Of a stretch of DNA of 64,000 nt, positions 1 through 7,591 are shown one piece after another; the stretch's first letter is position 1, and each line of letters opens with the position of its first letter. Position numbers and translations under genes: made by a program. The notes beneath the pieces were generated by a model, which was not told the DNA's origin, searched no databases, and worked only from the letters and a program-made list of their open reading frames with translations. Source of the stretch: an uncultured Bacillota bacterium (GTDB lineage Bacteria; Sysuimicrobiota; Sysuimicrobiia; Sysuimicrobiales; Segetimicrobiaceae); NCBI GenBank assembly GCA_963804645.1, contig CAWDRG010000009.1, forward strand, positions 1-64,000, in the 5' to 3' direction.

Positions 1-1290
1 GGACTGTAATGAAACTACTTGACTATTTGCGCATCCGCCCCGGTAAAATGCTATAGTTCCAATCGCCGTGGAAGGCGTCAGGCCGTAGCGTGATGGCGTT
101 CATCTGTTCGGCGGTCGGGGTCTGATTCTTCGGATACTTGCGGGTGTCGAGGACGCACCGAACCGCCAGCCCCGTAGCCGTTTTGGTGGCGGCAATGAGA
201 TTGACGATCGCCGCGTGCGTGAGCAGCGGACGGCCGCGCCACGTATGCGAGATGAAAGCGAACAGACGATGCTCAATCTTGTTCCACTTACTCGTTCCCG
301 GCGGGAGATGACAGACGGAGACCACCACCCCGGTGTCCCGGGCGAACTTGTGCAGCTCCCATTTCCAGAGGCGAAGGCGCGCGCCATTGCTCCCACCGCT
401 GTCGGCGGTGATGAGGAGCGAAGTGGCGCGCGGGTAATGTTTCCGTCCCTGGTCATGCCACCACCGCCGGATCGTGGCGACGGCAAATGTCGCGGTGTCG
501 TGATCCACGCCGACACTGACCCAGCCGAGGTTCCGCTTGAGATCGTACACGCCGTAAGGAATCGCCTTGCCCCGGGCGGCAGTGAGGAAGTCATGGACCT
601 TGACCGGTTCCGGTTGGCCCTGCGGCCGCCACGCGCGCCCGCCGTTCTTGAAGCGGCCCACCAGCTCTTTCTTCTTGGTGTCCACGGAAATGGCCGGCTG
701 CCCCCGCGCCAACTGCGCGGTGACGGCGGCGTTGATGTGCTCAAACTGCGCATTGCGATCAGGATGGCTGGCACCCTCCAACGTCTTTTGGTTCGCCTGC
801 AGACTATAGTCCAAGTCATGGAGCAGATGGGTCACCAACGTGTGGCTCACCGTATACCCGTGCGCCGTCAAGTCCGCCGCCAAGCGCCGCGTGCTCTTGC
901 ACGTCCAGCGCAGCGGGGACTCGGGGTCGCCCCGCGTGACCGGCTCCACCAACGCCTCCAGGGCGGCGGCCAGGCCCGGGACGAGAACGGTCAGCCGCTT
1001 CCGGCCCCCGCCCGCGCGTCTCACCCGTGTCGGCGCGAGCGCGGGTTTCTGCCGGATCTCTGCGAGCCCCCGCACAATCGTATTGCGAGCTAACCCGGTC
1101 GCCCGCGTAACCACCGCGATCCCACCGCGCCCGAGCGCCCGCGCTTCCGTCCCAGCCCACATACGTCGGTGCCTCTCGTTCATCGTCGGGAACAACGCGC
1201 GGTACTTCGTCCTGATCGCACGCTCAGCGTCCACATCATCAGTATCGGGGAAAAGAGAACAATAATCAAGTTATTTCGTTACGATCCCTC
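1..1290 (-). mobile_element. ISAzo13-family insertion sequence (left end probably runs a few bp off the window)
   Basis: Imperfect terminal inverted repeats flank the transposase: 1-27 GGACTGTAATGAAACTACTTGACTATT versus the reverse complement of 1261-1290, GAGGGATCGTAACGAAATAACTTGATTATT (21/27 match). Confidence 0.88.
23..1234 (-). CDS. ISAzo13-family (Rhodopirellula-type) DDE transposase
   Basis: 403 aa with family motifs GDPESPLRWT, ISVDTKKKE, TADSGGSNG, PPGTSKWNKIEHRLF and FHGDWNY. Confidence 0.95.
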   Translation of the reverse strand: MDAERAIRTKYRALFPTMNERHRRMWAGTEARALGRGGIAVVTRATGLARNTIVRGLAEIRQKPALAPTRVRRAGGGRKRLTVLVPGLAAALEALVEPVTRGDPESPLRWTCKSTRRLAADLTAHGYTVSHTLVTHLLHDLDYSLQANQKTLEGASHPDRNAQFEHINAAVTAQLARGQPAISVDTKKKELVGRFKNGGRAWRPQGQPEPVKVHDFLTAARGKAIPYGVYDLKRNLGWVSVGVDHDTATFAVATIRRWWHDQGRKHYPRATSLLITADSGGSNGARLRLWKWELHKFARDTGVVVSVCHLPPGTSKWNKIEHRLFAFISHTWRGRPLLTHAAIVNLIAATKTATGLAVRCVLDTRKYPKNQTPTAEQMNAITLRPDAFHGDWNYSILPGRMRK

Positions 1291-1410
1291 GACGGTGCAA
1301 CTGGCGATGCGCTTCGTGAGGAGGAACGCCTCGACGGCCTCACTCAAAGGGTGTGTATAGGCTTTATCAGCGGTTTCCGAGTCAGGCGCAACGGCTGAAA
1401 CCCGCGTCAC
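1291..1410 (-). pseudogene. N-terminal fragment of a probable tyrosine integrase, interrupted by the IS
   Basis: Manual translation VTRVSAVAPDSETADKAYTHPLSEAVEAFLLTKRIASCTV ends at the IS IR. LSEAVEAFLLxKR resembles helix 1 of the integrase SAM-like core-binding domain. It starts 8 nt after a tRNA 3' repeat. Confidence 0.6.
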
Positions 1411-1418
1411 AACTGGAC

Positions 1419-1470
1419 TGGCGGGCCCAGGTGAATCGAACACCCGACCAGAGGCTTAGGAGTCCCCTGC
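1419..1470 (-). repeat. tRNA-Arg(CCT) 3' fragment, att-like copy 4
   Basis: Matches 7516-7568 with one substitution and one deletion. Confidence 0.93.
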
Positions 1471-1759
1471 GCGGTGAACTTCAGGCGACGGACGACGGCC
1501 TACACCGATTCTGTAAGGGGTTCCACCGTCTCGACCCGCCCCGAGGCTGGTGCCGAAGAATAATGCGCCGGCTCATTCGCCGGCAGTCATGGCACAGTTC
1601 CAGCCCAACCTCGTGCGTTGTCCCGATCCCGCTACGAGCGCCGCTGGAATGAGTGAGCACCGGTACGTCCGGCGCTCTGTCGGCGAGGTAGAGGGGCCCG
1701 CGGAGACGCGGGCGAACGGCTCCTTGGTAGTGTAGCTCCAACTGCCCCTGGGAGACGCC

Positions 1760-3751
1760 GTGCACGACGCTTCCAACCCATCCGTACCCCCTCGCGAGTT
1801 ATCTCGCGCGGGCAAGATCATTCTGCTCTTGCTGGTGGCGTACGGCGTCGCGGTCATCTTGCCCGATACACTACGCCCTACCGCACTGTATCAGATGGCC
1901 TATTACCTCGAGGGGCTGCCGGAAGCGGTGACCAACGCGCGGCCCTCGGCTCCGCACCCGACGCCGGTTGGCTGGTACCCATTGGGGACGCTCGGCTTCA
2001 CGGCGAACAACGACGGCACCGTCACGTCCGTGGACGACTGCGGGGGTACACAACCCTGCGATGTGCCCGCGTGGAACACGCTGCAGGTGGGCGACCGGAT
2101 CGATCTCAAGAGAACGGGGATCAGCGATCGCCGAGCGGTGAACCAGATGGTGTTTGTCGCTCACGATCGGCCCGTAGTTCTCCAAGTCGCCCCCACACCA
2201 AACGGCGCCCCGGCGCGCGCGATCACTCTCATGCCGAGTTCCGAGGTGCTGCGATTCTTCACCAGCTCGTCGTCGCTCGAGGCCTGGACCCTCCTGCTTG
2301 ATCAACTGGGGGGCCTCTTCTTCATTGGACTTGCGGCGCTTTGTGTCTGGCGGCACCCCACGCGCATGGCCTGGGGATTGCTCCTGTACGCCGTGTGGTA
2401 CAACTCCGGACAGTACTTCGTGTGGTACGCAAACCTTCCCGTCGGAGCTCTTCGCTGGTTTGACTGGCTCCAGGCGATCGCTTCCGGCGCTGGCCTGACC
2501 GGGCTCTTGATGTTCGCCCTGCACTTTCCCCGCGATACGGTCGTGGGGTGGCGGCGACGCGTGGAACCGTGGCTTTTCGTACCGTTTCTAGCGCTGACAG
2601 GGCTGAGCCTATGGTCGTTTCGCAACTTCACCGCAGGCGTCCAGACCGAGCGCGCCTACGATGTCTACTACTATCTCACCTTCGCCATCTACTTGGCGGT
2701 CTTCGCCTTGTTCTTCCATACGTACGTAACCCAGCCCAAGGATCGACCCCGGATCCGGTGGGTCATCGTAGGCGCGCTGTCGGGTCTCCTGTGCTTCTTG
2801 TTCGCCGACGTCTATGAGGCGACGTCGATGCTCAACTGGCTTCCCTTCGCGCTCCCCGAGTGGGTGTTACAGGCACTCTACGCAGTAAACGTGGCCTTCC
2901 CGCTGACCGTCGCCTATGCGATCAGGCGTCACCGGGTGATCAATGTCCGATTGGTGCTCAACCGCTCGTTCGTCGTGGTCGTGAGCCTCGTCCTCGCCAG
3001 CGTTGCGCTAGCGGGGTTCGATCTCGCGTTTCACGCGCAAGTCGGCCGAAACGCCCCTTGGATCGCAGGCATCGCCGCGATCATCGGCGGAATGGTTCAT
3101 GAACGCCTGCGCGGGGTCGAGGACATCGTGGACTGGCTCTTTTTTCGGCGCTGGTATGTCGCCGAGCACGATCTGAAGAACACCGCGGAAGAGTTGGCCC
3201 AATCCACCAGCGTGGAGGAAGTCAACCGCGCACTGATCGATGTGCCCGCGGCCGAGCTCAACCTCACCACCGCAGGCTTGTTTGAGCGTCAAGCGGACGA
3301 GAGCTTCCGACGTGTGCATGCCACCGCGTCCTGGCCGGACACGTTCCTGCCGTCGCTCTCGGCGGGCGATCCGCTGATTACCCTCGTGAAGGACGTGCCC
3401 CTGGCGCTCCCCGATCGCTACTGGGAGCGCCAGATGCCGCCGTCGTCCCCCACGCTCGCGCCGGTACTCGCAGTACCGGTGGCCATCCGAGGGATGCTGA
3501 ACCGGATCGCGTTCTTCGGCCCCCACACCAACGACGAAACATTCGATCGCGATGAGTTGAATATCATCCGCAGGGTGGCGCGAGCTGCAGCCTTCGCCTA
3601 TACGGCATTGGACGCCGACGCACTGCAGGTCAAGAACCGGAAGCTCGAGGAGCAGTTGCGAGAAGCCCAAGCTTCAATGCTGGCCCAAAGTGACCATCGG
3701 GACACACCGCATGCTACCACCCCGAGCGCTGACGGCCAACCCGACGCGTAG
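1760..3751 (+). CDS. Multi-pass membrane protein with PDZ-like extracytoplasmic region and C-terminal GAF-like domain
   Basis: N-terminal TM, PDZ-like LQVGDRID motif, ~8 hydrophobic helices, and a GAF-like C-terminus (VLAVPVAIRG...GPHTNDETFDRDEL). Confidence 0.7.
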   Translation: MHDASNPSVPPRELSRAGKIILLLLVAYGVAVILPDTLRPTALYQMAYYLEGLPEAVTNARPSAPHPTPVGWYPLGTLGFTANNDGTVTSVDDCGGTQPCDVPAWNTLQVGDRIDLKRTGISDRRAVNQMVFVAHDRPVVLQVAPTPNGAPARAITLMPSSEVLRFFTSSSSLEAWTLLLDQLGGLFFIGLAALCVWRHPTRMAWGLLLYAVWYNSGQYFVWYANLPVGALRWFDWLQAIASGAGLTGLLMFALHFPRDTVVGWRRRVEPWLFVPFLALTGLSLWSFRNFTAGVQTERAYDVYYYLTFAIYLAVFALFFHTYVTQPKDRPRIRWVIVGALSGLLCFLFADVYEATSMLNWLPFALPEWVLQALYAVNVAFPLTVAYAIRRHRVINVRLVLNRSFVVVVSLVLASVALAGFDLAFHAQVGRNAPWIAGIAAIIGGMVHERLRGVEDIVDWLFFRRWYVAEHDLKNTAEELAQSTSVEEVNRALIDVPAAELNLTTAGLFERQADESFRRVHATASWPDTFLPSLSAGDPLITLVKDVPLALPDRYWERQMPPSSPTLAPVLAVPVAIRGMLNRIAFFGPHTNDETFDRDELNIIRRVARAAAFAYTALDADALQVKNRKLEEQLREAQASMLAQSDHRDTPHATTPSADGQPDA

Positions 3752-4216
3752 ACGCGCTATGGGGACGGACTGCTAGGCCCAAGCTAATCCAGTCGAGCCG
3801 TCATGCGCGACCGGCGATACCGACGGGCGGCGCCGCCAGAAGGCCCATTCTGTAAGGCGCTCCACCCATCTCGACCCGATCGGGGTGGACCCGAAACGAC
3901 CTGCCAAGACCCCTTAGTCCGGCTCATCACTCGGTGGGTTGTCCCGTTCATGCCGCGCCAAGGCGCTCAGCGCCGCTTCCGATCACCTCAAGGCGGTCCG
4001 CCACCGCTGGGGGGTGAATTCACACGATTGGAACTGCGTCATCCTCTCCCGCAGTCTTTGGGACCGTCTCCCGGCTTAATCGGCGTGTACCATCGCTCGC
4101 GTCACCTTGGAACCCCGTCCCCCCACCGCACGCCGAAGCAGGAAGACGTGGCGGAGATGTGCAAGGACGAATCGTGCGACCAAGGTTGCGATGCGGTCTG
4201 GCGCGGGCATAACCTC

Positions 4217-5296
4217 GTGGTGCGATGGATCGTTAGCCTCATGCTAGCTTCGACGCTGCTCCTTGCAGTCGTCCTGCCCGTGTTCCCCGCGTCGTCAAGC
4301 CTTGCCCCGTTGCTGGCCGGGGTGACGCAGTCCGTCGCGCTCGTGCTGGCGAAAGATGCCAATGGAGAAACCCTTGCGTCTGGGACGGCGTTCGTCGTGG
4401 ACCGTAGCGGCCTTCTCGTCACAGCTTTGCACGTCGTCGACGCCGCACCCCAGGTTGTCTTGGTGCTGCCCGGGTCTCCTCCTCTCCGCGCGGACGTGCT
4501 TGGAATCAACGCGGAGCATGACGTGGCCCTGCTCCGCGTCTCGGGCGCGCCCCGCCAGGACCTGCCCCCACTGGCGCTGAGCGATGTCAGCGCGGTGCGC
4601 GTCGGCGACGGCGTTGTCGTGCTCGGGTATCCGCTACCTTCTCCGCAGAACCCTGCGCTCACGGTAACGCAGGGGATCGTCAGCGCCCTCCGGACGCAGG
4701 AGGGATTGATCCAGATCGACGCGGCCGTAAACCCCGGCGACAGCGGGGCGCCTGTGCTCACGCTCGACGGTCGGGTGATCGGCATCGTCGACGCGTCGGT
4801 GAAAGGGGCGCAGCAGCTTAATCTCGTCGTCCCCATCAACTTTGCGCAACCCCTGATCGAGCGCGCGGCCACCGCCGGGGCGCTCGTCACCCCTATGACG
4901 TTACCGCTCACCCGGCTGACTCCGGTGACCCTAACGTACCAGAGTCAGGAGTTCGGCTTCGGCGCGCGCCAAGCGCTGCTGGGCGTGGCCTGCGCCACAC
5001 CCTCGCCTGACGCCCTTCTCCTGGAAGACGTGAACGTGGCGTTCGAGGCGCAGGGGGCGCTTCACGTGATCACGTGGCTCTCGTGGGGGAAGGGGGCCCC
5101 TCTAAACAGTCCATTGGCGTTCGCGCGGTTGGATGGGACTTCGGTCAGGAAATACACGGGGACCTTGACTCAGCTCAGCGTTCGTCCTGCCATCGTGTGC
5201 CTCAACTACGAGGCCTGGAACGACACCGCTCCGGTCGGGCTGACGTTCAACGTGGTGTTCATGCTAGGGTACCGGAGCTTCACCATCCCGCCGTAG
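4217..5296 (+). CDS. Secreted trypsin-like (S1C/HtrA-type) serine protease; start codon approximate
   Basis: Signal peptide and catalytic motifs TALHVV, HDVALL, NPGDSGAP. The ORF-track extension to 3803 looks non-coding. Confidence 0.85.
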   Translation: MVRWIVSLMLASTLLLAVVLPVFPASSSLAPLLAGVTQSVALVLAKDANGETLASGTAFVVDRSGLLVTALHVVDAAPQVVLVLPGSPPLRADVLGINAEHDVALLRVSGAPRQDLPPLALSDVSAVRVGDGVVVLGYPLPSPQNPALTVTQGIVSALRTQEGLIQIDAAVNPGDSGAPVLTLDGRVIGIVDASVKGAQQLNLVVPINFAQPLIERAATAGALVTPMTLPLTRLTPVTLTYQSQEFGFGARQALLGVACATPSPDALLLEDVNVAFEAQGALHVITWLSWGKGAPLNSPLAFARLDGTSVRKYTGTLTQLSVRPAIVCLNYEAWNDTAPVGLTFNVVFMLGYRSFTIPP

Positions 5297-5394
5297 CCGC
5301 GCTCACGCGTCCGGCGCGGGTGCTCCGCCGAGACGTCGGGTGCGGCCGGTGGGTCTCATGCTTCCACTGAAACGTAGATCAGGGCGCCGCGCCC

Positions 5395-5485
5395 GAGGAA
5401 ATGCCTCCATAGCCTCGGCAATGGGGTGAGCAGGGGCTTTCCCGGCGGTTTCCGAGTCAGGCGGAACGGCTGAAACCCACATCAC
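5395..5485 (-). pseudogene. Second eroded integrase N-terminal remnant
   Basis: VMWVSAVPPDSETAGKAPAHPIAEAMEAF is homologous at DNA and protein level to 1321-1410 and also starts 8 nt after a tRNA repeat. Confidence 0.55.
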
Positions 5486-5493
5486 CACTGACT

Positions 5494-5548
5494 TGGCGGG
5501 CCCGGGGTGAATCGAACACCCGACCAGCGGCTTAGGAGGACCCTGCTC
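5494..5548 (-). repeat. tRNA-Arg(CCT) 3' fragment, att-like copy 3
   Basis: 52/55 identical to 7516-7570. Confidence 0.95.
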
Positions 5549-5627: not shown

Positions 5628-5656
5628 TAGATTCATTCGTACTACAATCGGGAGGT

Positions 5657-5941
5657 ATGCAAGTGCCCAAGAGCGTGCGGCTCACGCCCGAGCTTGAGGT
5701 CACCCTGGAGCGTGCGGCTGCCTCCAAGGGGGTGCCGGAATCGCAGGTCATCCGTGAGGCGCTACAGCAGTATTGCGAGGCAGCACTCGGCCAGCAACCA
5801 TTGCGCGAGCGTCTGAGGTATGCGATCGGAGCGATCCAGGCCAAGGGTCGCCCGGCTCAAGGAACCAGCAAGCCCGTGCCCCGATCCCGCTGGGAAGGAA
5901 AGGAATTCGTCCGGCTCCTTCGCGCCCGGGGCGAGAAATGA
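5657..5941 (+). CDS. vapB: Ribbon-helix-helix (CopG-like) antitoxin
   Basis: KSVRLTPELEVTLERAAASKGVPESQVIREAL RHH pattern, GGAGGT RBS (start may be GTG 5663), ATGA overlap with the PIN toxin. Confidence 0.85.
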   Translation: MQVPKSVRLTPELEVTLERAAASKGVPESQVIREALQQYCEAALGQQPLRERLRYAIGAIQAKGRPAQGTSKPVPRSRWEGKEFVRLLRARGEK

Positions 5942-6345
5942 CCCTGGCTGATACAGGCCCCCTAGTCGCACTGATCGACCCAAGAGATCCGAATCACCGG
6001 CTATGCGTAGACGCACTTGAACGGTTGTCGTCGCCATTTGTCACCACATGGCCCGTTTTCACCGAGGCAATGTACTTCCTCGGCGACGCGGGTGGCTGGG
6101 CCGGTCAAGTTCCGCTCTGGCAGATGCTCCGACGGGGCGACCTCACCATTGTGGAAAGCTCGAAAGCAGCCATGCGGCGCACGGAAGCGTTGATGGAGAC
6201 GTATCGGGATCTCCCAATGGATCTAGCCGACGCATCGCTTGTAGCCCTCGCCGAGGAACGCGGATTCATGAGGATCTTTACCCTCGATAAACATTTCCAA
6301 GCCTATCGTCTCCATGGTCGCAAGCGCTTCGCCGTTATTCCCTGA
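5938..6345 (+). CDS. vapC: PIN-domain toxin
   Basis: MTLADTGPLVAL...VFTEAMY...MDLADASLV...IFTLDKHF carries the PIN acidic residues. Confidence 0.93.
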   Translation: MTLADTGPLVALIDPRDPNHRLCVDALERLSSPFVTTWPVFTEAMYFLGDAGGWAGQVPLWQMLRRGDLTIVESSKAAMRRTEALMETYRDLPMDLADASLVALAEERGFMRIFTLDKHFQAYRLHGRKRFAVIP

Positions 6346-6375
6346 CGGGGTGATTCAAATCCATCAAACAACTAC

Positions 6376-6430
6376 TGGCGGGCCCGGGGCGAATCGAACA
6401 CCCGACCAGAGGCTTAGGAGGCCTCTGCTC
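6376..6430 (-). repeat. tRNA-Arg(CCT) 3' fragment, att-like copy 2
   Basis: 52/55 identical to 7516-7570. Confidence 0.95.
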
Positions 6431-6657
6431 ATCCGCCCCTCGGGACGCCTTGATTGACACGGGTTCTAGCGGGGCGAGCATGGACTTTCGTGCGTCTTGA
6501 TCGACTCCTATCACCTCCCGATCGGATTGCTGCTCTTGCCGCGACCTTGTCGGGCACGGTAGGCTTTCTGTTGTCTCCTCCATGCACATCGCTTGGAACA
6601 GTAGCGCGCGTATCTTCGGAGCGGCGGTGACCCGCAGGACGTGACTCCGTTCCGCGA

Positions 6658-7503
6658 TTAGGCCAATCCGTGGCGATCCAGCGCTTCCCGCATCTGGCTG
6701 AGGAACTCTGTGCCCATTCGGCGCCCGTTCGGGAGTTGGTCGTCCCGGTCCCAGCGCCACGTTGCGACCATCGCCAACATCAAAACCCGGCACTCGCCAA
6801 GCAGGTCTTGATTAGCAGCCAGATAGTGCTCGCTGACCTCTTCGGGCGCATGGGCGACATCGAACTCAACAGGCCCACGGCAACAGGTCTCGAGGTCTAC
6901 CAACAGCAGCCCTTTCTTCGTCCTGAGCAAATTGCCCGAATGCGGCTCGCCGTGCAGCAACTGCTCGTCGGCGCCGCGGTCGCCGATCGCGCGCCTCAGG
7001 CTGCGCAGCGTGTTGCTTAGAAGCTCCCGGTCCGCATCTCCGAGCTCCGGAGTCTGGGCGCGGTTGCCAACCAGCCACTGCGCCTCCGCGACTCGATCCG
7101 TGAAGTGCGGCGCAGTCACATCGATCCGCCGCATGCCAGCGTGCAGCCGCTCGAGTGCCTGCGCATACTCGGCTGGCGAGACGTCTTGATGGGATACAGG
7201 CTCGTAGTAGGTCCACAGCGTGACCGCGAACCCGTCACGCACGTAGACGCGCGGCTCCACCCGAGGCTCAAGCTCAGCCACCGGGCTATCGGTTTCCGCG
7301 AGCCGCCGACCGACCTCGACTTCGAACTCTGCGCCAGCCTGATGTACTACATGCGCGACCCGAGCAAGAACGTCACAAGGCAGCAGGCGCACAGCGAGCC
7401 GGTTCGAGTCGTGAAGAACGACCGCGTCATCGACCCCCAGGTCAAGCGCTGAGGCAGTCGACATAGCGGCACCCACCGCACGCGGAACTTCTGATGCCTT
7501 CAT
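6658..7503 (-). CDS. Aminoglycoside phosphotransferase-like (APH family) kinase
   Basis: LHGEPHSGNLL and VDLE motifs, GAGG RBS. Confidence 0.88.
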   Translation of the reverse strand: MKASEVPRAVGAAMSTASALDLGVDDAVVLHDSNRLAVRLLPCDVLARVAHVVHQAGAEFEVEVGRRLAETDSPVAELEPRVEPRVYVRDGFAVTLWTYYEPVSHQDVSPAEYAQALERLHAGMRRIDVTAPHFTDRVAEAQWLVGNRAQTPELGDADRELLSNTLRSLRRAIGDRGADEQLLHGEPHSGNLLRTKKGLLLVDLETCCRGPVEFDVAHAPEEVSEHYLAANQDLLGECRVLMLAMVATWRWDRDDQLPNGRRMGTEFLSQMREALDRHGLA

Positions 7504-7515
7504 CGTCGCCTCGGT

Positions 7516-7591
7516 TGGCGGGCCCGGGGTGAATCGAACACCCGACCAGAGGCTTAGGAGTCCCCTGCTCTATCCACTGAGCTACGGGCCC
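7516..7591 (-). tRNA. tRNA-Arg (anticodon CCT)
   Basis: GGGCCCG TAGCTCAGTGGATAGAGC A GGGGA CTCCTAA GCCTC TGGTC GGGTG TTCGATT CACCC CGGGCCC GCCA; cloverleaf with encoded CCA. Confidence 0.96.

Follow-up and report, generated by a model that had tools for sequence, protein, structure and literature searches.

Tandem islands at tRNA and tmRNA genes are formed by accretion through tyrosine integrases, the islands at the Dehalococcoides ssrA gene being one example (PMC3146451; general features in PMC2704930). The window analysed here, a stretch of 64,000 nucleotides (C9:1–64000), opens with a locus that compares closely with these systems, and with a probability of roughly 85% the first 7.6 kb of the contig represent a tandem array at tRNA-Arg(CCT) of integrative elements that have decayed to remnants (Table 1). 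As in the accretion islands outlined in both papers, direct repeats of the 3' end come after an intact target gene, the units between the repeats occur with or without an integration module beside the repeat, integrases may be cryptic and insertion sequences (IS) lie inside. This locus differs in its long repeat of 52–56 nt, which spans the anticodon arm to CCA, in two tiny units of 0.83 and 1.08 kb, and in that every copy of the integrase family in this genome is broken. Such an array is ordinary genomic debris, explained by known biology, and will not surprise specialists in mobile elements; the translation start of the integrase family is the sole point of some interest. For annotation, the two stubs are best entered as integrase pseudogene fragments, the ARAGORN tRNA at 6376–6448 as an att-type fragment, and the region as an island array that has decayed and that carries a currently mobile IS.

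Table 1. Features at the tRNA-Arg(CCT) locus, in window coordinates.
Feature	Position	Strand	Evidence
ISAzo13-family insertion sequence; transposase ORF 23–1234	1–1288	-	PF07592 E 2e-135; NF033519 562 bits (cut-off 200)
Left integrase stub, ~40 codons, (V)TRVSAVAPDSETADKAYTHPLSEAVEAFLLTKRIASCTVE, ends at IS terminus	1291–1410	-	
tRNA-Arg(CCT) 3' fragment no. 3, att-core copy, ~52 nt, 1-nt deletion	1419–1470 (repeat search 1417–1472)	-	no Rfam tRNA match
Multi-pass membrane protein of 663 aa without a Pfam family; lies between fragments 3 and 2 as a cargo or flank gene	1760–3751	+	
Trypsin-like serine protease gene (Trypsin_2), convergent with right stub	4202–5296	+	PF13365 E 4e-28
Right integrase stub, ~30 codons, VMWVSAVPPDSETAGKAPAHPIAEAMEAF	5395–5485	-	
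tRNA-Arg(CCT) 3' fragment no. 2	5494–5548 (repeat search 5493–5548)	-	direct repeats
Ribbon-helix-helix antitoxin and PIN-domain toxin, VapBC-type pair	5654–6345	+	PF01402 E 0.0027 (weak, below cut-off); PF01850 E 1.8e-10
tRNA-Arg(CCT) 3' fragment no. 1	6376–6431 (repeat search 6375–6430)	-	direct repeats; no Rfam tRNA match
APH-family phosphotransferase gene	6658–7503	-	PF01636 E 3.5e-13
tRNA-Arg(CCT), intact, integration target	7516–7591	-	ARAGORN; Rfam RF00005 61 bits (threshold 29)

The direct-repeat search found the 3' part of the tRNA in four copies of 56 nt, one of them (7515–7570) within the intact gene. The resulting set of one intact tRNA-Arg(CCT) and three 3' copies of 52–56 nt, all in the same orientation, is the arrangement that marks an accretion array. 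Among the four copies Rfam scores only 7519–7591 as a tRNA. ARAGORN additionally calls a tRNA-Arg at 6376–6448. This call, which Rfam does not make, joins a 3' fragment to a 5' part of foreign origin. Mis-calling of attR-type tRNA gene fragments as tRNA genes is described in PMC9897764, and the call here is the same phenomenon in another lineage with no notable difference. At contig level, the public contigs compared contained no joint between two tRNA copies of the array and no excision or integration product.

The original prediction described the two stubs as homologous, as lying 8 nt after a tRNA repeat and as starts of a tyrosine integrase, and our analysis bears out all three points. Compared without gaps and leaving aside the tRNA part, the stubs agree at 49 of 60 and at 71 of 98 nucleotides, the value of 71 being reached by none of 10,000 mononucleotide shuffles. 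Their proteins are 63% identical over 41 amino acids (tblastn E 3e-10 against the whole genome), and the direct-repeat search recovers a 107-nt pair of 77% identity (1325–1431 and 5400–5506). Homologous GTG codons occupy 1408–1410 and 5483–5485 and the neighbouring tRNA copies begin at 1419 and 5494, leaving the same 8-nt gap to the attachment-site copy in both. The left stub reads to ...KRIASCTVE and then directly into the IS end. The right copy is a stub by its integrase homology but not a clean one: homology is lost after ~5395, and a 107-aa open frame continues in unrelated sequence to a stop at 5303. Judged by homology, the stubs are the 5' ends of tRNA-associated tyrosine integrase genes, as gene remnants rather than working members. 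They extend through the leader and ~10 residues into the SAM-like DNA-binding domain and, as both end before the catalytic domain, lack the R...HxxR...H/W...Y pattern; neither can encode a recombinase. A profile search for an integrase domain was proposed with the original prediction; a Pfam search of the stubs alone gave no match in either, because they are too short. A candidate hairpin within the stub (GCGGGTTTC-N18-GAAACCCGC) was rejected, as 73.0% of cells pair compared with 72.7% in shuffles and 97 of 500 shuffles matched or exceeded its covariation score.

Assignment of the stubs is carried by their full-length relatives. Stub homologues at E ≤ 0.01 occur in 15 of 41 genomes, G000 included, with a best match to relatives of E 9e-13. 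All 28 related loci examined (11 taken automatically and 17 picked for N-terminal coverage) have a same-strand tRNA immediately upstream, the types being Arg (15), Gly (5), Ala (3), Glu (2), Ile, Val and Pro. Where the frame is intact, stub homology runs on into an Xer-like tyrosine integrase of ~300 aa (PF13495 and PF00589). In two such relatives, L005 and L006, PF00589 matches at E 7e-32 and 4e-31 with the R, HxxR, H and Y motifs visible, and PF13495 in L005 starts at residue 55, at the residues aligned with AVEAFLLTKR of the stub; the stub is homologous to the N-terminal end of genuine members of the family. The best NCBIfam matches of both relatives are XerC, XerA and XerD, with integron integrase weaker, and their scores of 154–170 bits compare with a cut-off of 335 for XerC and are far below the equivalog cut-offs. 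The relatives resemble Xer-like recombinases and integron integrases in combining SAM-like and catalytic domains, but unlike XerC, XerD and integron integrases their genes lie beside tRNA genes and not at dif or attI. This location therefore indicates element integrases rather than chromosome-dimer resolvases. For this uncultured peat and soil lineage, the result is a tRNA-adjacent Xer-like integrase family with many tRNA targets that is often broken.

Elsewhere in the genome, a third stub on C10 aligns to residues 43–93 of a relative and then to 315–335, which amounts to an internal deletion, and a fourth copy, the C11 paralogue, is frameshifted and split over two frames. No intact integrase of the stub family was found in the assembly. 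A search of this 96.8%-complete assembly for the integrase remainder, using tblastn with the C11 paralogue and two full-length relatives and a PF00589 search, did not find it and returned only the C11 copies and unrelated recombinases, with nothing at any contig end. In the C10 and G004 copies the break follows KR(V/I)A immediately and in the left stub it comes four codons later, so that three ends fall within ~15 nt. As a truncation hot spot this cluster is given low weight and was rejected, since partial-match ends elsewhere in the order are scattered, for example at query residues 80, 96, 107, 120, 151, 164, 204 and 233. An IS scar common to the G004 stub was likewise rejected, its alignment score being reached by 796 of 5,000 shuffles for the whole segment and by 1,626 of 5,000 for the IS part. 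Synteny was not decisive as a guide to the neighbouring contig, G004 pointing to C10 (140–177 kb) and G002 to C2. An ISAzo13-like remnant is present at C10:198833–199569, in the probable continuation of the array.

The IS at the start of the contig matches the ISAzo13 transposase model above its cut-off and is typical of that family (NF033519, PF07592) in its single DDE transposase ORF of ~400 aa and in imperfect inverted repeats beginning GG(G); the short target duplication of the family is seen at a copy on C15, where TTA(G) is found on both sides. Its terminal inverted repeats of 27 nt (1–27 and 1261–1287) are 78% complementary, and the same ends recur in the C15 copy, L016 and L017. The left stub does stop at the IS as predicted, but the terminus is at 1288, as placed by comparison with the C15 and metagenome copies, and not at 1290. 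The copy at 1–1288 departs from the family pattern in lying at a contig start, where contig base 1 is no more than 1–2 nt from its left terminus, and in that the only flank it shows is TCG(A); at three other right junctions in this IS family the sequence opens with TTAG. A flank unlike TTA(G) therefore does not support a simple insertion at the left stub. One Logan contig (X3, record 17) reaches 197 nt left of window base 1. Two metagenome contigs carry copies that are 99.4% and 99.7% identical with different flanks, and a variant without the stub, in which the IS end is joined to window 1455/1456, where the anticodon loop of the tRNA fragment has its TTA (1456–1458), occurs in Logan contigs of 2 of 4 runs (X1 and X4) and in metagenome contig L016. 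The IS is recent, polymorphic and still mobile in the population, and its junction with the left stub is probably the work of a transposase.

How this junction arose bears on what silenced the array. An insertion into the last working integrase gene, with the remainder just beyond the IS and the array immobilised by the event, would suit a stub frame that stays unbroken as far as the IS terminus itself, the result that a transposase-made junction should give, and a match to intact relatives through ...KRIASCTVE, four codons past the C10 and G004 breaks. Such an insertion is nonetheless unlikely, as the assembly holds no such remainder, the left IS flanks in the two metagenome contigs correspond to C22:174145 and C17:309313 and not to an integrase (these contigs may be chimeric across the IS), the flank is TCG rather than TTA(G), and the IS is polymorphic with one variant lacking the stub. 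An interrupted gene depends on one junction, because the integrase part beyond the IS was not found. The prediction that the IS froze the array also falls, given that other copies died by deletion or frameshift, that the tRNA-proximal units hold no remnant and that the IS is a recent, polymorphic arrival. A possible account, though one short of probable, is that the junction is secondary, an IS-mediated adjacent deletion or rearrangement or an IS-to-IS recombination having removed the rest of a possibly already dead integrase, with the stub-less variant a further 167-nt adjacent deletion from the same IS end. Such an origin agrees with the non-canonical flank, with the joining of the same IS, in the same orientation, to a canonical TTA(G) 167 nt deeper in L016 and in contigs of X1 and X4, with the L016 flanks (..CTAA / TTAG..), which map to different contigs and form no target duplication, and with the ISAzo13-like remnant on C10. 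However, contigs built from short metagenome reads can be chimeric where a repeat is 1.3 kb long, and the left–right pairings in L016 and L017 therefore prove little. It is highly improbable that the junction is itself an assembly chimera and that the stub lies beside the IS in no cell. The contig starts at the IS, which occupies several sites in the population, and among the records listed 1288/1289 is present only in this assembly and is bridged in this form by none of the public contigs, all of which a chimera would explain; yet the terminal base of the IS is precisely where the join lies, a k-mer-overlap artefact is unlikely because the IS end and stub share at most 1–2 nt, and the X2 and X3 contigs stop at 1284, as expected with several real right flanks.

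Our favoured reading, a decayed tandem array, would begin with elements of one family that each carried an Xer-like tyrosine integrase gene starting a few nucleotides 3' of their tRNA copy, the copy comprising the last ~50–56 nt of the gene from anticodon arm to CCA. Each integration, presumably by the standard attP × attB route, would have rebuilt the tRNA and moved its 3' fragment outward, which we infer to have produced the order tRNA – unit – fragment – unit – fragment – stub/unit – fragment – stub. At the right stub a deletion took away the rest of the gene, and the IS would be a late arrival rather than the cause of the array's immobility. An orthologue of the 663-aa membrane-protein gene, of 77% DNA identity, is located near the same tRNA locus in G004 and outside the outermost tRNA fragment of that genome; the array is therefore no simple insertion stack and some rearrangement is needed.

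Conservation immediately after the tRNA raises the question of a role at the DNA level. Across elements targeting tRNAs of several amino acids, GACGCGGGTTTCAGCCGTT recurs as a conserved block at a constant distance from the end of the tRNA, and it is translated in two different frames. In most members of the family no canonical start codon lies in frame between the tRNA and the conserved HPL..AVEAFLL motif, and an ACG conserved in the family is ATG in two copies. That the ~60 nt after the tRNA act as a DNA-level control or arm element of the integrase family, and are not plain debris, is rather improbable; if true, it would imply non-canonical or tRNA-coupled integrase initiation, or an att arm that lets integrase-less units move in trans. 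It is very doubtful that the stubs themselves are kept by selection, with ~110 nt after the att core serving as an integrase-binding arm through which cis-mobilisable, integrase-less units are moved in trans. The clustered ends of the C10, G004 and left stub copies and the retention of the block at different tRNAs would fit such selection, and cis-mobilisable integrase-less tandem islands are known elsewhere (PMC3146451). However, partial matches in the order end at many positions, the stub is missing from the two units closest to the tRNA, the genome yielded no intact integrase of the family that could act in trans, and the inverted repeat in the block is without covariation.

The VapBC-type pair makes up the whole of the 0.83-kb unit that separates fragments 2 and 1, and the APH gene is the sole gene of the 1.08-kb unit adjoining the intact tRNA; these two units, nearest the tRNA, are without an integrase remnant. 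That such small units are mobile cassettes found elsewhere was rejected, as a DNA search of 40 relatives gave no unit-length match to either and yielded only tRNA-sized or short weak matches and an APH paralogue in the same genome. This paralogue is situated at C9:482772–483652 and is 86% identical.

The left and right stubs are homologous remnants that each begin 8 nt past a tRNA repeat, as the original prediction held. A repeat search pairs 1325-1431 with 5400-5506 (107 nt, 77% identity), and when the tRNA part is excluded 71 of 98 ungapped positions remain identical, a score equalled in 0 of 10000 shuffles. Their predicted proteins align over 41 aa with 63% identity, and the distance from tRNA copy to aligned GTG is 8 nt in both. 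The left stub does end at the ISAzo13-family insertion sequence (IS), but the IS terminus lies at 1288 and not at 1290 as had been proposed. Its frame reads ...KRIASCTVE up to that terminus, where intact relatives read ...KRVAGCTxxTLxxY.... The right stub is likewise a homologous remnant, but its open frame is not stub-sized and extends through unrelated sequence to 5303; the stub joins this sequence approximately 100 nt from a convergent protease gene. Both stubs are without any catalytic domain.

Relatives provide the identity of the truncated gene. When 41 genomes, its own among them, were searched with the 40-aa left stub, 15 held a match at E <= 0.01. Among 28 related loci, 11 fetched automatically from this search and 17 picked since the match covered the N-terminus, from a separate tally that, like the DNA search of the small units, included the unpublished genomes G034 and G062, a tRNA gene lies directly upstream on the same strand in every case (Arg 15, with five anticodons, Gly 5, Ala 3, Glu 2, and Ile, Val and Pro 1 each). 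Relatives with an intact frame continue for approximately 300 aa. PF00589 is present in locus L005 (E 7e-32) and in L006 (4e-31), with the SAM-like domain PF13495 in L005 starting at the residues aligned to AVEAFLLTKR of the stub. Full-length relatives contain the motifs ...GLRANE..., HPHALRH, LLGHES and TLRY, and NCBIfam models place them as Xer-like, far below the XerC/D cut-offs. Because the homologues sit beside tRNAs and run on into PF00589 proteins, the stubs are the first 30-40 or so codons of a tRNA-adjacent element integrase. The stub observation is real, and its interpretation as the start of a tyrosine integrase was right. One relative (L003, G025:C7:21031-21945) is an otherwise full-length integrase with two in-frame stops, one of them a TGA precisely at the Gly codon of KRVAGCT; no evidence of recoding was found in this locus, which is most likely a pseudogene.

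No canonical start codon is conserved in this family of tRNA-adjacent integrases. The distance between the tRNA CCA and the HPL motif is fixed across the family, and a block, GACGCGGGTTTCAGCCGTT, is kept among elements at different tRNAs. The block is read in two frames, L005, L007/L030 and L023 using the different one, and an inverted repeat within it shows no covariation. Between the tRNA end and HPL, an in-frame ATG, GTG or TTG occurs in only 4 of the 24 copies aligned. Across 17 loci, a count without L003 and L034, which were dropped by the anchor pattern, a canonical start never occurs in more than 4 at codon positions -48 to +36, and the first majority is at +40 (10/17). Where the family conserves an ACG, L019 and the right stub have ATG instead.

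The IS encodes a transposase of the ISAzo13 family at 23-1234 (-) (PF07592, E 2e-135; NF033519, 562 bits) and has terminal inverted repeats of 27 nt. A scan with the IS end recovered copies 99.4% and 99.7% identical in two metagenome contigs, whose left flanks correspond to C22:174145 and C17:309313; neither is an integrase, and both sites are uninterrupted by the IS in this assembly. TTAG follows the right end of the IS in the copy on contig C15 and in metagenome contigs L016 and L017, and also precedes the left end of the C15 copy, while the window IS is flanked beside the stub by TCG(A). In L016 and in Logan contigs from two of four peat-metagenome runs (X1 and X4), the IS end is instead joined to window 1455/1456, at the anticodon-loop TTA of the tRNA fragment. 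This stub-less variant skips 167 nt, comprising the whole left stub and 36 nt of the tRNA fragment. The contigs of X2 and X3 end at 1284, as expected of a branch point, and none of the Logan contigs listed bridges 1288/1289 as this assembly does. That the join in this assembly falls exactly on the terminal base of the IS nevertheless argues for a real, transposase-made junction rather than a k-mer artefact. The IS is polymorphic in the population, given the stub-less join and the other sites in metagenome contigs. In L017, a 123-nt sequence (2023-2145) flanks the IS on the right; the assembly contains it unchanged at least five times (C9:314039-314161, C19, C13, C6), and it is probably where some other repeated element ends.

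An IS-centred history, in which the insertion cut the last integrase copy and so froze the array, is not supported. No remainder of the integrase was found in the whole assembly, either by tblastn with three integrase queries or in a PF00589 search, and the non-integrase metagenome flanks and the TCG(A) beside the stub also speak against the cut. The remaining family copies in the genome, namely the right stub and those on C10 and C11, are all broken without this IS. The C10 copy (196525-196691) is a third stub 8 nt after a tRNA-Arg fragment and aligns to residues 43-93 and then 315-335 of a relative, an internal in-frame deletion, and in the C11 paralogue, 3.3 kb from a tRNA-Arg(TCG), the coding sequence is divided between two frames. 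The units nearest the intact tRNA, of 1.08 kb (APH-family kinase) and 0.83 kb (RHH and PIN pair), hold no integrase remnant. Since divergence among the stubs is 20-28% at the DNA level but stays below 1% among population copies of the IS, the IS appears to be a late arrival.

In the 5.3-Mb assembly (22 contigs, 96.8% complete), the window covers the opening 64 kb of contig C9, base 1 of the window being base 1 of the contig, and the assembly holds no sequence further left. Alignment and repeat search identify one intact tRNA-Arg(CCT), whose 3' 52-56 nt (anticodon arm to CCA) recur three times in the same orientation. ARAGORN calls the intact gene at 7516-7591 (-) and a second tRNA-Arg(CCT) at 6376-6448. 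Rfam recognises only 7519-7591 among the copies (61 bits), with no tRNA match for the 6376 copy at E <= 1. The 73-nt second call joins a 3' fragment to a foreign 5' part and is an annotation trap.

Coordinates of the array features and of the regions compared
Feature	Position	Orientation	Basis
IS	1-1288	(-)	
Left stub	1291-1410	(-)	
tRNA-Arg(CCT) 3' fragment	1419-1470	co-oriented with intact tRNA	alignment, repeat search
Right stub	5395-5485	(-)	
tRNA-Arg(CCT) 3' fragment	5494-5548	co-oriented with intact tRNA	alignment, repeat search
tRNA-Arg(CCT) 3' fragment	~6376-6431	co-oriented with intact tRNA	alignment, repeat search
Region of start-codon and block comparison	1342-1421, 5417-5496; relatives L003-L034		

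The stub and array structure is of a well-described kind and already known. Williams 2002 is reportedly among the works on islands bounded by tRNA/tmRNA 3' ends. PMC3146451 describes tandem islands bounded by such 3'-end repeats, with or without integration modules, and with cryptic integrases and insertion sequences; features of these islands appear likewise in PMC2704930, and the array here is the same kind of structure. The second ARAGORN call resembles the attR-type fragments mis-called as tRNAs that PMC9897764 describes. A similar array is probably carried by another genome of the order, as tRNA-Arg(CCT)-like copies occur at least four times on one of its contigs (G038:C98; 7095, 17782, 25354, 28429).

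Synteny suggests how the array extends. In G004, of the same genus, a stub lies directly beside the same tRNA, with a tRNA fragment 2.7 kb further, then a membrane-protein orthologue and beyond it DNA syntenic with C10:140-177 kb. C10 carries near its end two tRNA-Arg fragments, a stub and an ISAzo13-like remnant. Together these make C10 the probable continuation of the array beyond C9 base 1, which is only a lead because G002 has another flank at the array, corresponding to C2. Around the C10 stub (L035, 196525-196694), the further tRNA-Arg fragment is 5.7 kb away (202356-202403) and the ISAzo13-like remnant (198833-199569) has 68% identity. Given that the window has the membrane-protein gene within the array and G004 has it outside the outermost tRNA fragment, the history of the array is more than a simple stack of insertions. 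A stretch of approximately 170 nt that spans the 5' end of this gene and the region upstream of it is duplicated between window 1707-1877 and C10:177467-177639 (74% identity), where G004 synteny puts the gene; this hints that a rearrangement moved it into the array. The APH-family gene next to the tRNA is matched, over window 6645-7513, by a paralogue of 86% identity that lies 475 kb off at C9:482772-483652, and approximately 4 kb from that paralogue lies a short remnant resembling the integrase N-terminus, AQAVEAFPLARRVAGCT (C9:487818-487868).
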